Below, piece by piece: positions 17,784 through 24,741 of a DNA stretch of 43,594 nucleotides. Both the position numbers and the translations under genes were made by a program. The stretch's first letter is position 1, and every line of letters begins with the position of its first letter. Below the pieces are notes generated by a model. It worked only from the letters and a program-made list of their open reading frames with translations, ran no database searches and was not told the origin of the DNA. Source of the stretch: a virus (taxonomy: Duplodnaviria; Heunggongvirae; Uroviricota; Caudoviricetes); IMG/VR virus record IMGVR_UViG_2526164599_000004. One strand, written 5' to 3'.

Positions 17784-17825
17784 TGAACCGCCCCGGGTTT
17801 CCTGGAGAGTGTTTTATCTGTGAAC

Positions 17826-18716
17826 TCAGGCTGCCAGATCATCGTTTCCGATGGAAGCATAATAAGCTTTTTCTGCTTCTGCCGGTGGGATATGGCCCAG
17901 CCTTTCCAGCAATCGTCGATTGTTATACCAGTCCACCCACGTGAGTGTGGCCAGCTCCACTTCTGTCCGGTTTTTCCAGCTCTTACGGTGTATTACCTCC
18001 GCTTTGTAAAGGCCATTGATGCTCTCCGCCATCGCGTTGTCATACGAGTCACCAGTACTTCCTGTTGATGCCAGTAATCCGGCTTCCTTAAGCCGCTGTG
18101 TGTAGGCCAGCGATACATACTGAGAACCTTTATCACTGTGATGGACTGTGCCGGACGGTCGACGGGCCCATAACGCCTGCTCCAGAGCATCCAGCACGAA
18201 TGTCGTTTCCATAGACGATGAGACCCGCCACCCCACGATGTATCCGGCAAACACATCAATGATGAACGCCACATAGACGACCCCCTGCCATGTGCTGACG
18301 TAAGTAAAATCAGCCACCCACAACTGGTCAGGACGTTCTGCCACAAACTGACGGTTTACGCGGTCGCCTGCGGCAACGGCTTTCCGGCTGACGGTAGTGC
18401 GGACCTTTTTACCCCGGAGAACACCGGCAAGTCCCATAACCGCCATGAGGCGCGCCACTGTACATCTGGCTACCCTGATTCCTTCCCGTAACAACTGACG
18501 CCAGACTTTACGCACACCGTATACCTGATGATTCCCATCGTATACGCGCAGTATCTCTTTCTTCAGCCAGTCATCGCGCTGCGCACGGGCACTGCGTTTA
18601 TCAGGATGATGTCGCTGTTGCTGACAGTGGTAATACGTTGACGGGGCAATATGTAGTTCACTGCATACCGGTCCGACCCCGTACAGCTTACGCAGCTTAT
18701 CCAGCAGTGGCATCAC
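17826..18716 (-). CDS. IS629 transposase OrfB
   Basis: 296 aa, integrase catalytic core; recalled as IS629/IS1203 OrfB. Confidence 0.85.
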
Positions 18717-19039
18717 TTTTTCCAGAGGCGGTCGAACTCCGCCTTCGCAAAATAAGCGGAAGCCTGGCGAAGGATATCGTTACTGCGGCGCAGTTCACGA
18801 TTTTCACGTTCCAGCTCTTTCAGACGCTGACGTTCAGCGGTGGTGAGCCCGCCATCACCGCCTCCGGTATCCCGCTCATGCTGGCGTACCCAGACACGCA
18901 GAGTCTCCGGTGTACAGTCAATCTTTGGGGCAATGGAACAAATTGCCGCCCACTGTGAGTCATATTCGCCCTGACTTTCCAGAACCATACGAATCGCCCT
19001 CTGACGGACTTCGGGGGAAAAACGAGTATTTTTAGTCAT
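18713..19039 (-). CDS. IS629 OrfA (HTH)
   Basis: 108 aa [26 protein letters not shown]...; lies upstream of and overlapping orfB, the usual IS3-family arrangement. Confidence 0.85.
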
Positions 19040-19174
19040 CCTGTTTACCTCTTTCTCAGGGAGTTTAGTCTCCAGGATTCCCGGGGCGGTTCAGTTCATC
19101 AGTCCTCGACGGATGTTTACTACCGTATCCAAAGCGGCATTGATGGCGATCGGGCAGGGCGTCAGGAGGGCTGC

Positions 19175-19351
19175 ATGAGACGACAGCGGCGAAGTTTCAC
19201 CGACATCATCTGCGAAAACTGCAAATACCTTCCAACGAAACGCTCCAGAAATAAACGCAAGCCAATCCCAAAAGAATCTGACGTAAAAACCTTCAACTAC
19301 ACGGCTCACCTGTGGGATATCCGGTGGCTAAGACATCGTGCGAGGAAATGA
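19175..19351 (+). CDS. ninE: NinE
   Basis: 58 aa [51 protein letters not shown]... matches lambda NinE; its ATG overlaps the stop of the truncated upstream frame (ATGA). Confidence 0.8.
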
Positions 19352-19695
19352 CAATGGATTATTCACAGTTAAGTGATTTTGAAATTAACCGAATGGTAGG
19401 AGACATAATTTTTAAAGGCCTTTGGGCATGTAAGCCTGAAACATCAGGGAATAACACCAACAAATGGTATTACGGAAATGCCGATGTAAGTCTTGAGCCA
19501 TTAAACCCTTTGCCTGACTACTGCAATGATCCGAGCGCTTCATGGCCGATTATTGAGAAATACAGGATTTCTATCTTAGACCAGTTAACTGAATGGTGTG
19601 TGGATGCAAAAGGCGTAAGCCCAATATTTGATACCAGACCTCTCCGCGCCGCCATGATTGTCTTTCTCCTGATGCAGGAGGCCAATAATGCTTAG
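19348..19695 (+). CDS. NinX-like phage protein (possibly DUF2591 family; family name from memory)
   Basis: 115 aa from [22 protein letters not shown]...; start overlaps the ninE stop. Confidence 0.5.
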
Positions 19696-22141: not shown

Positions 22142-22571
22142 CGTGAGCCCTTTTTTTTGAACTATTATTAAAAAATGATGTCACTGCGCGATAAATATTC
22201 ATCTAATCAATGTGATTATTTCAAGATGTAAGTTTTGGTTTCTCGTTTGATTTGTGAAGTAGATCTCTATTTTTATCTGAACTTTTTTCTATCGAATCCT
22301 ATTCATAGCTCTTGTCTGAATAAAAATAAATCTACTAGCCAATTTATATTAACGGCTGTTATTTATAAGTGCTCTATAATTTGAAGGTTCAATTTAAATC
22401 GGCTAAAAATAACACTGGAAATTATTTGTTGGTTATTTGTTGAGATTTGCTTATGTATTTGTAGTGGTGTTTTCAATACTCGGTAGCATTCTCGCAAATA
22501 TCATTTAGTGGTTTACGTACGTAAAAAATTGGTTATGCTGTTAAGAGTGGTTACTTCGTCACACAGCTTAA

Positions 22572-22594
22572 ACCCGCCGTCGAGCGGGTTTTTC
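22572..22594 (+). terminator. Candidate tR' terminator of the short late leader transcript
   Basis: ACCCGC-CGTCGA-GCGGGT hairpin followed by TTTTT, about 120 bp upstream of the holin start. Confidence 0.5.
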
Positions 22595-22714
22595 CATTTT
22601 TTGAGTCTCGATATTAGCTGATAACCCAATACCTGAGTTATTCACTGACTCCGAGTCTGTTACGTTTCGTAGTATTCCCTCAATTTACACCCGCTTTGTC
22701 TGCGAGGTGGGGTT

Positions 22715-22930
22715 ATGAAATCCATGGATAAGTTAACAACGGGTGTCGCCTATGGCACCTCAGCAGGTAGTGCCGGTTACTGGTTTTTACAGCTGCTCGA
22801 TAAAGTCACGCCCTCACAGTGGGCAGCAATAGGTGTGCAGGGTAGCCTGGTATTTGGCCTGCTGACGTACCTGACAAACCTTTATTTCAAGATTAAAGAA
22901 GATAAGCGCAAGGCTGCGAGAGGTGAATAA
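22715..22930 (+). CDS. essD: Class II holin / pinholin (S21 type)
   Basis: 71 aa [31 protein letters not shown]...; matches DLP12 EssD / phage 21 S. Confidence 0.9.
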
Positions 22931-24741
22931 TGCCTCCATCATTACGAAAAGCCGTTGCTGCTGCTATTGGTGGCGGAGCAATTGCTATAGCATCAGTGTT
23001 AATCACTGGCCCAAGTGGTAACGATGGTCTGGAAGGTGTCAGCTACATACCATACAAAGATATTGTTGGTGTATGGACTGAACCGCCCCGGGTTTCCTGG
23101 AGAGTGTTTTATCTGTGAACTCAGGCTGCCAGATCATCGTTTCCGATGGAAGCATAATAAGCTTTTTCTGCTTCTGCCGGTGGGATATGGCCCAGCCTTT
23201 CCAGCAATCGTCGATTGTTATACCAGTCCACCCACGTGAGTGTGGCCAGCTCCACTTCTGTCCGGTTTTTCCAGCTCTTACGGTGTATTACCTCCGCTTT
23301 GTAAAGGCCATTGATGCTCTCCGCCATCGCGTTGTCATACGAGTCACCAGTACTTCCTGTTGATGCCAGTAATCCGGCTTCCTTAAGCCGCTGTGTGTAG
23401 GCCAGCGATACATACTGAGAACCTTTATCACTGTGATGGACTGTGCCGGACGGTCGACGGGCCCATAACGCCTGCTCCAGAGCATCCAGCACGAATGTCG
23501 TTTCCATAGACGATGAGACCCGCCACCCCACGATGTATCCGGCAAACACATCAATGATGAACGCCACATAGACGACCCCCTGCCATGTGCTGACGTAAGT
23601 AAAATCAGCCACCCACAACTGGTCAGGACGTTCTGCCACAAACTGACGGTTTACGCGGTCGCCTGCGGCAACGGCTTTCCGGCTGACGGTAGTGCGGACC
23701 TTTTTACCCCGGAGAACACCGGCAAGTCCCATAACCGCCATGAGGCGCGCCACTGTACATCTGGCTACCCTGATTCCTTCCCGTAACAACTGACGCCAGA
23801 CTTTACGCACACCGTATACCTGATGATTCCCATCGTATACGCGCAGTATCTCTTTCTTCAGCCAGTCATCGCGCTGCGCACGGGCACTGCGTTTATCAGG
23901 ATGATGTCGCTGTTGCTGACAGTGGTAATACGTTGACGGGGCAATATGTAGTTCACTGCATACCGGTCCGACCCCGTACAGCTTACGCAGCTTATCCAGC
24001 AGTGGCATCACTTTTTCCAGAGGCGGTCGAACTCCGCCTTCGCAAAATAAGCGGAAGCCTGGCGAAGGATATCGTTACTGCGGCGCAGTTCACGATTTTC
24101 ACGTTCCAGCTCTTTCAGACGCTGACGTTCAGCGGTGGTGAGCCCGCCATCACCGCCTCCGGTATCCCGCTCATGCTGGCGTACCCAGACACGCAGAGTC
24201 TCCGGTGTACAGTCAATCTTTGGGGCAATGGAACAAATTGCCGCCCACTGTGAGTCATATTCGCCCTGACTTTCCAGAACCATACGAATCGCCCTCTGAC
24301 GGACTTCGGGGGAAAAACGAGTATTTTTAGTCATCCTGTTTACCTCTTTCTCAGGGAGTTTAGTCTCCAGGATTCCCGGGGCGGTTCAGGACTGTATGTC
24401 ACGGGCATACAGGAAAAGACATCATGCTCGGTAAAACGTATACCAAAGCAGAATGCAAAGCCCTCCTGAATAAAGACCTTGCCACGGTCGCCAGACAAAT
24501 TAACCCGTACATCAAAGTCGATATACCGGAAACAATGCGCGGCGCTCTTTACTCATTCGTTTACAACGTGGGTGCTGGCAATTTCAGAACATCGACGCTT
24601 CTTCGCAAAATAAACCAGGGCGATATCAAAGGCGCATGTGATCAGCTACGTCGCTGGACATATGCTGGCGGTAAGCAATGGAAAGGTCTCATGACTCGTC
24701 GTGAGATTGAGCGTGAAATCTGTTTGTGGGGTCAGCAATGA
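22930..24741 (+). pseudogene. rrrD: SAR endolysin (R21/RrrD-type lysozyme) split by IS629 copy 2
   Basis: 5' part 22930-23078 encodes [50 protein letters not shown] (SAR signal-anchor); the frame resumes at 24389 ([22 protein letters not shown]...WGQQ); 1310 bp of IS lies between. Confidence 0.9.
23079..24388 (-). mobile_element. IS629 (IS3 family), copy 2, 1310 bp, flanked by 4-bp target-site duplication GGAC
   Basis: Same element as copy 1 (identical ORF translations); inverted repeats TGAACCGCCCCGGG; direct repeat GGAC at 23075-23078 and 24389-24392; orfB 23121-24011 and orfA 24008-24334 on the minus strand. Confidence 0.9.

Follow-up and report, generated by a model that had tools for sequence, protein, structure and literature searches.

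Two copies of an insertion sequence (IS) of the IS629 group lie as direct repeats in a lambda-like prophage of Escherichia coli, and the structure probably arose in two separate events, both due to a single IS629 isoform, in a prophage integrated at attLambda. The window, by which we mean the whole 43,594-nt stretch that was analysed (IMG/VR record IMGVR_UViG_2526164599_000004), represents positions 73980-117573 of the E. coli draft contig AIHI01000004.1 (assembly GCA_000250375.2) and reaches the contig end. Within it, copy A occupies 17784..19093 and copy B 23079..24388, both on the minus strand. The two copies are not equivalent: copy B interrupts an endolysin gene as a simple insertion, whereas copy A stands in place of 633 bp of prophage DNA.

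A reading of the letters alone, here called the sequence-only reading, had described the two copies as identical and in the same orientation, and both statements were confirmed. On exact nucleotide comparison, the copies, 1310 bp each, had 0 mismatches, and the transposase open reading frames (ORFs) are on the minus strand in both (orfA 19039..18713 and orfB 18716..17826 in copy A; orfA 24334..24008 and orfB 24011..23121 in copy B). The start-to-start spacing is 5,295 bp. The shared sequence runs just 1 nt past either end; thus, the repeat is the IS itself and not part of a larger duplication. orfA encodes 108 amino acids, and the orfB frame overlaps it and is open from inside orfA (frames 0 and -1), with an AAAAAG tract at the orfA end in both copies. 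The frameshift-stimulating pseudoknot ALIL (RF01497) was found at full length in each copy, scoring 116 bits against a gathering score of 50, and identical copies elsewhere carry the RefSeq annotation 'programmed frameshift'. The called products of both copies matched the Pfam families HTH_Tnp_1, HTH_21, rve and rve_3, that is, a DDE transposase with an N-terminal helix-turn-helix. The 25-nt terminal repeat TGAACCGCCCCGGGWWTCCTGGAGA occurred exactly four times in the window and in none of 100 shuffles. The imperfect terminal inverted repeats (25/26 nt) are TGAACCGCCCCGGGTTTCCTGGAGA and TGAACCGCCCCGGGAATCCTGGAGA, with 5'-TG...CA-3' ends. Both copies are intact IS3-family elements of the IS629 group.

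The element in the window is 100% identical to copies on plasmids of enterotoxigenic E. coli (ETEC), for example p948 of strain H10407 (0 differences). From the element named 'IS1203 family' by PGAP it differs at 65-66 of 1310 nt, and from a third sub-type at 54-55 of 1310 nt, so that both of the other sub-types are 95.0-95.8% identical to it. IS629 sub-types I-III are known to diverge by 4-5% (Rump et al. 2011, PMC3271280), and the distances measured here are consistent with this spread. The naming is provisional and is based on these sub-type proxies; RefSeq and PLSDB label the identical copies only as 'IS3 family transposase'. On the plasmid p948 itself (comparison loci L017 and L018), there are six IS629-group copies of full length, which fall into at least three variants (0, 2, 30 and 45 differences from the window copy). 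None of the six has a target site duplication (TSD), which suggests extensive recombination between IS copies on this plasmid.

For the two insertion sites, E. coli LST200A (L002), which is IS-free at both, served as the comparison locus. Its empty endolysin site reads GTATGGACTGTATG, that is GTATGGAC^TGTATG, and the window reads GTATGGAC-IS-GGACTGTATG at the same place. Copy B is flanked by a 4-bp TSD, GGAC/GGAC, and is a simple insertion in an endolysin gene of the RrrD/R21 signal-arrest-release (SAR) type, inside codon 50. The 5' fragment of this gene comprises 149 nt (22930..23078, plus strand). The 3' fragment (24389..24741, plus strand; L002 8914-9266) begins with the GGAC repeat, contains a 105-amino-acid ORF from 24424 and matches Pfam Phage_lysozyme. 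The intact endolysin orthologue matched PDB entries 4ZPU and 3HDE at E ~1e-110. Given the family spacing Glu-8-Asp-5-Thr and Glu35 in R21 (PMC6024848), codon 50 is that of the catalytic-triad Thr. The insertion thus leaves a 49-residue stub with the membrane anchor and the active site, and a 105-residue remainder. We infer that the endolysin is non-functional and that the prophage is lysis-defective. By analogy, copy B, whose TSD is intact, could in principle undergo precise excision, which would restore lysis; such excision has been demonstrated for stx2::IS1203v (bioRxiv 10.1101/2023.06.07.543989).

Copy A has no TSD, its flanks being CAGC on the left and GTTC on the right. A segment of 633 bp present in L002 (4285-4917) is missing here; it comprises 194 nt at the 3' end of ninB and ~443 nt at the 5' end of an N6-adenine methyltransferase gene, and this loss explains the absence of a TSD. 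What is left of ninB on the left is its first 247 of 441 nt (17537..17783, plus strand; L002 4038-4284), which now forms a 135-amino-acid fusion ORF with the IS, still matching Pfam NinB. The right side starts with the 3' remnant of the methyltransferase gene (19094..19178, plus strand), which corresponds to L002 4918-5002, where the annotated coding sequence (4475-5002) ends; 81 nt of it precede the ninE start and 4 nt overlap ninE. An IS-associated deletion or a recombination between two IS copies has thus already taken place at this site, a rearrangement of the type that the sequence-only reading had foreseen as a later event. One IS might have inserted and a deletion driven by transposase or by the IS-excision enhancer (IEE) might then have extended from one of its ends. 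It might also be that two direct IS copies, one in ninB and one in the methyltransferase gene, recombined homologously. The damage at copy A appears irreversible but is expected to concern genes that the prophage can do without; in lambda, the nin region is non-essential.

A missing TSD is not unusual for this element. In O157, the TSD, 3-4 bp long, was kept at 21 of 47 IS629 sites, leaving 26 without one (PMC3271280).

The segment between the copies measures 3,985 bp (19094-23078). Its gene order is colinear with that of IS-free relatives, and it is therefore native prophage DNA. After the methyltransferase remnant come, on the plus strand, ninE (19175..19351; Pfam NinE and RefSeq orthologue annotation), ninX (19354..19695; Pfam Phage_P22_NinX), the Holliday-junction resolvase gene rusA (19902..20264; Pfam RusA, orthologue annotated rusA), ylcG (20261..20401; Pfam Phage_YlcG; locus L003 7332-7472, offset 12929) and quuD, encoding a Q-type late antiterminator (20487..20870; Pfam Phage_antitermQ, orthologue annotated quuD). 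An OmpC/NmpC-type porin gene of 360 codons follows on the minus strand (21059..22141; Pfam Porin_1), the central part of which is 76-85% identical to L002. The last complete gene is an essD-type holin gene (22715..22930, plus strand; Pfam Phage_holin_2_1, orthologue annotated essD). The sequence-only reading had spoken of a bracketed 4-kb segment with rusA, quuD, porin and holin genes; these genes were identified correctly, but the inventory was incomplete and left out, for example, the methyltransferase remnant and the 149 nt of the endolysin 5' end.

We propose that copy B entered codon 50 of the endolysin gene by transposing in the copy-out/paste-in manner of the IS3 family, duplicating GGAC, and that the two surviving copies make up the 6.6-kb direct-repeat structure; the event order is a matter of interpretation. 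Direct 1.3-kb repeats 4 kb apart would be a standard RecA substrate. A single RecA crossover between them would yield ninB'-IS-'rrrD and a 5.3-kb circle unable to replicate. Alternatively, transposase acting on the inner ends (the left inverted repeat of copy A and the right inverted repeat of copy B) could bring the IS copies into abutment and delete the same segment. Either way, the prophage would lose Q together with the late promoter region, porin and holin genes, and the late operon would be silenced for good. From the geometry of the direct copies and the established biology of RecA, the prediction that recombination would take one IS together with ninE, ninX, rusA, ylcG, quuD, the porin gene, the holin gene and the endolysin 5' fragment in one step is sound but inferential.

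We examined whether these junctions, numbered J1 to J4 from left to right, occur elsewhere. The 135-amino-acid ninB'-IS fusion ORF at the left junction of copy A was a singleton among ~15 billion proteins, found on AIHI01000004.1 only. Neither of the copy A junctions (J1 and J2) nor the right junction of copy B with its 4-bp TSD (J4) had a contiguous match in 5,426 complete E. coli genomes, and IMG/VR scans for J1, J2 and J3 gave 0 matches. Both insertions are thus restricted to the strain of the window or to a very narrow lineage. The sequence-only reading had said that the structure looks recent. Identity is a weak support for this, since pooled IS reads may have been used for both copies in a draft assembly, and gene conversion homogenises copies; junctions unique to one assembly support recency better than 0 differences in 1310 bp. 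A recent origin of the copies is thus plausible but weakly evidenced. The interpretation in the sequence-only reading is thus supported in part, and that reading had missed the non-equivalence of the copies and the earlier 633-bp loss.

Two intact, direct IS copies with competent ends around a moron-like porin gene might suggest a compound transposon, in which the 6.6-kb IS629-cargo-IS629 unit (with porin, Q and holin) was inserted whole or is mobile as a unit. A precedent exists: IS3411, an isoform of IS629, flanks the citrate transposon Tn3411. However, the outer flanks of the unit, CAGC and GGAC, differ, so that no duplication surrounds it; copy B has a private TSD; and the cargo genes follow the same order as in IS-free relatives and are not foreign. 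These observations contradict a compound transposon as the origin of the structure. In addition, neither the unit nor its junctions were found elsewhere (J1, J2 and J4 in the complete genomes, J1-J3 in IMG/VR), and we regard this explanation as very improbable. The absence of a TSD at copy A would also be expected if this copy marked a crossover between two lambdoid prophages, one with IS629 in ninB and the other with IS629 in the methyltransferase gene, in which case the 633-bp deletion would be only apparent. The identity to L002, 99.4% to the left of copy A and 94.7% to the right, agrees with such a chimera, and in 24 complete genomes IS3-family ends lie no more than a few hundred bp from the boundary between the methyltransferase gene and ninE. 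However, in 200-nt windows the identity was patchy on either side, without a step at the IS (left, 95.5% over the final 200 nt; right, 97%, 93.5% and then 99-100%), and it was chiefly the porin gene and the stretch upstream of the holin that lowered the average on the right. The difference between left and right thus dissolves into mosaicism. Recombination between prophages at copy A is not specifically supported, and we consider it unlikely.

An assembly artefact would be a third explanation, in which a consensus IS was set into two gaps, or the junctions were paired wrongly, and the true state is a deletion product, a mixed population or a pair of non-identical copies. The window lies at the end of a contig of a draft whole-genome shotgun assembly, and short reads normally fail to resolve multi-copy repeats of 1.3 kb. 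Consensus filling would produce just such an exact identity of the copies, to each other and to the ETEC plasmid copies. However, the four junctions are distinct and coherent: those of copy B show a 4-bp TSD and, when joined, restore the complete endolysin gene, and those of copy A lie in neighbouring genes. Any other pairing of the junctions requires a 5.3-kb circle that does not replicate. Moreover, the assembly resolved an IS21-family element within this contig, and the overlap where it is inserted is a clean 4 nt. An artefact of this kind therefore has, in our judgement, a low probability, similar to that of the chimera.

Two separate events by one isoform remain the explanation that we prefer, and several points have to be counted against it. 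The contig is a draft, and the identity of the copies, and in principle also the pairing of the junctions, may owe something to how the assembler resolved repeats. No deletion product, circle or tandem junction was found in the 5,426 complete E. coli genomes, in the collection of ~15 billion proteins or in IMG/VR. At copy A, the sequence is compatible with both proposed routes of the 633-bp loss. The lysis defect is deduced from the interrupted gene. Nor can the polarity of copy B on the late genes be assumed either way, given that IS629 in stx2 left phage production and the downstream late genes unblocked (PMC7430833).

The site of copy B was used in other prophages as well. In RrrD/R21-type lysozyme genes, IS elements interrupt the same phosphodiester in the window (23078/23079) and in comparison loci L004 (10149/10150), L007 (739/740) and L010 and L016 (both 7097/7098), and at ~10223 in L001. 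The event in the window involved the ETEC-type isoform and a 4-bp TSD, GGAC. A 62-amino-acid endolysin'-IS fusion ORF was also present in four other draft assemblies, where the element is of the IS1203 type and the TSD is GAC (3 bp). The IS1203-type copies in these assemblies have 66 differences from the window IS, spread over the whole element. When a synthetic query with the IS reversed at the same position was used, a contiguous match was obtained in 29 complete genomes, and all 25 of the matches listed belonged to the O111:H8/H-/NM group. The copy in one member of this group, O111:H- 11128 (L016, IS at 7098-8407), is a clean insertion with TSD GAC, and the lysozyme allele that it interrupts has differences at 20 of 150 flanking positions. 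RM9131 and RM9975 have the element at the same position in reversed orientation relative to O111, with the right flank replaced. A single ancestral rrrD::IS shared with the other strains was ruled out by the 95%-identical isoform, the 3-bp versus 4-bp TSDs and the opposite orientation in one lineage.

A direct comparison of RM9131 (L010 7098-8407) with O111:H- 11128 (L016 7098-8407) showed left arms that are 99.96% identical over 7.1 kb, IS1203 in opposite orientations and different right flanks. The RM9131 state cannot be derived from the O111 state by a simple IS x IS inversion, because the IS end next to a fixed flank is not turned round by homologous inversion between IS copies. An IS2-like element (TSD GTTGG) is inserted 8 nt upstream of the site in strain S1-CAM-02-A.

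With different sub-types, both orientations, two lysozyme alleles and TSDs of 3 and 4 bp, there were apparently at least four independent IS629-group events at this site: one in the window, one represented by three draft genomes with the IS1203 type and a 3-bp TSD, one in the O111 lineage and one in RM9131/RM9975. We judge the chances to be about even that the codon-50 site (GTATGGAC^TGTATG) is a genuine hot spot, determined by sequence or structure, for the IS629 group and perhaps for the IS3 family generally. Rump et al. found no IS629 hot spot (PMC3271280). A hairpin with an 8-bp stem lies just 3' of the insertion site, but the fold of the 100-nt segment was not significant (z = -1.69), and the target hairpin was rejected as the cause of a hot spot. 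ATG directly precedes the TSD at three of the five distinct TSD-bearing loci, a small sample in which the pattern ATG|GNN was picked after the data had been seen. A second IS1203 site in RM9131, which lies in an unrelated region (L010 12815-12834, near nleH/cif), reads GATTTTGTTGGAG-ATGGAT with TSD GAT, and it resembles the lysozyme target GATATCGTTGGCGTATGGAC (L016 7077-7097, TSD GAC) at 15 of 20 positions. ATG|GNN may be a target preference.

Insertions and losses of the kind seen in the window were also observed in related prophages. In strain G5, ninB holds an IS at a distance of 27 nt that abuts chromosomal sitD, and the prophage has lost its whole right arm. In RM9131 and Z1323PEC0008, the IS in the lysozyme gene abuts a tail-fibre remnant, and lysozyme genes have also suffered IS-adjacent losses in RM12581 and RM11626. 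The insertion in Z1835 is clean, with TSD GGG. In many strains, IS629-type elements are found in the ninB and lysozyme genes of prophages, and deletions often adjoin them; in this respect the structure is ordinary.

This picture agrees with published work on enterohaemorrhagic E. coli (EHEC). In O157, 62% of IS629 copies reside in prophages (PMC3271280), and IS629 is behind many gene inactivations and deletions, including IEE-dependent deletions adjacent to the IS of a few nt to >40 kb (Calvo et al. 2023, PMC9943667, citing Ooka 2009 and Kusumoto 2011). The IS629/IS1203 elements of EHEC prophages share with the window copies the length of 1310 bp, the orfA/orfB frameshift and the preference for prophages, and with copy B a TSD of 3-4 bp; many of them also lack a TSD, their deletions begin exactly at the IS end and their sub-types are 4-5% apart (PMC3271280, PMC9943667). 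The differences are that the window isoform is the ETEC-plasmid type and not one of the O157 types, and that the two particular insertion junctions have no record elsewhere. Insertions of IS629 or IS1203v in stx2 (PMC7430833; bioRxiv 10.1101/2023.06.07.543989) are similar in that the element inactivates a gene of a lambdoid late operon and that precise excision can restore the gene if the TSD is intact, as it is in copy B. However, the target there is a cargo toxin gene and phage production persists, whereas the target in the window is the endolysin gene and release should fail.

DLP12 of E. coli K-12 is another IS-degraded prophage with the module rusA-ylcG-quuD-nmpC-essD-rrrD-rzpD and the RrrD endolysin (PDB 4ZPU). 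Its nmpC is interrupted by IS5. In contrast, the IS629 copies of the window have hit ninB, the methyltransferase gene and rrrD and spared the porin gene, and the window prophage is nearly full-length, at attLambda, with head and tail genes. Tn3411 also consists of two direct IS629-group copies around a few kb of cargo, and IS3411 is listed as an IS629 isoform (Rump 2011, PMC3271280). The unit in the window differs from Tn3411 by the lack of an outer TSD, by its native cargo, by one copy having its own TSD and by showing no sign of movement.

The rest of the window conforms to a nearly full-length lambda-like prophage integrated at attLambda beside ybhC. A ybhC-like gene of the pectinesterase family (1-1284, minus strand) adjoins a lambda-type integrase gene (1419-2489, minus strand), which places the prophage at the classical attLambda site. 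In O111:H- 11128, the integrase gene and ybhC adjoin the IS-interrupted lysozyme gene as well, in a rearranged order. Along the contig, Pfam matches gave the order exo/bet/gam, kil, cIII, N, cI, cro, cII, O, P, ren, nin, Q, lysis, terminase, head and tail, which from the integrase to the head genes is the canonical order of a lambdoid prophage, with a lysis cassette of the DLP12/phage-21 type. The lambda cIII thermoregulator RF01804 (10379-10437, minus strand, 88.5 bits) confirms a lambda-type early left operon. Between gam and kil lies the IS21-family element (7945-10069; istA 8046-9218, istB 9215-10012), the third IS of the prophage, which is missing from the otherwise 98-99% identical prophage of strain G5. 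Its flank alignments overlap by 4 nt, consistent with a 4-bp target duplication. Two patches of the segment between the IS629 copies, one in the porin gene (21094-21493) and one before the holin gene (22294-22693), are only 76-90% identical to L002, compared with 98-100% for the neighbouring genes, which points to local mosaicism or diversification of the prophage porin and late-promoter region. The Rz spanin gene (24738..25196, plus strand; Pfam Phage_lysis) is located downstream of the interrupted endolysin gene. After it, the region 25008-27283 departs from the relatives, which have bor/iss at that place; it contains a KilA-N/ORF11CD3 gene (25398-25895), an 87-amino-acid ORF and a DUF1398 gene (26744-27169, minus strand), followed by a DUF3950 gene and Nu1.

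IS629-driven prophage decay with adjacent deletions is already known and belongs to textbook EHEC/ETEC genomics. For this strain, the analysis describes a lambda-like prophage that is likely lysis-defective and in which a single recombination would suffice to remove Q, the late promoter region, the holin and the porin gene. It can serve annotation, and it warns that in draft data this locus may be misassembled or may vary between genomes. The mildly novel lead is the putative hot spot at the endolysin site, which is an unexplained observation and not a result. If the hot spot were true, it would give these IS elements a recurrent, site-specific means of inactivating prophage lysis. It would also be the first defined target preference of IS629 and would imply a non-random role of IS3-family elements in prophage domestication.

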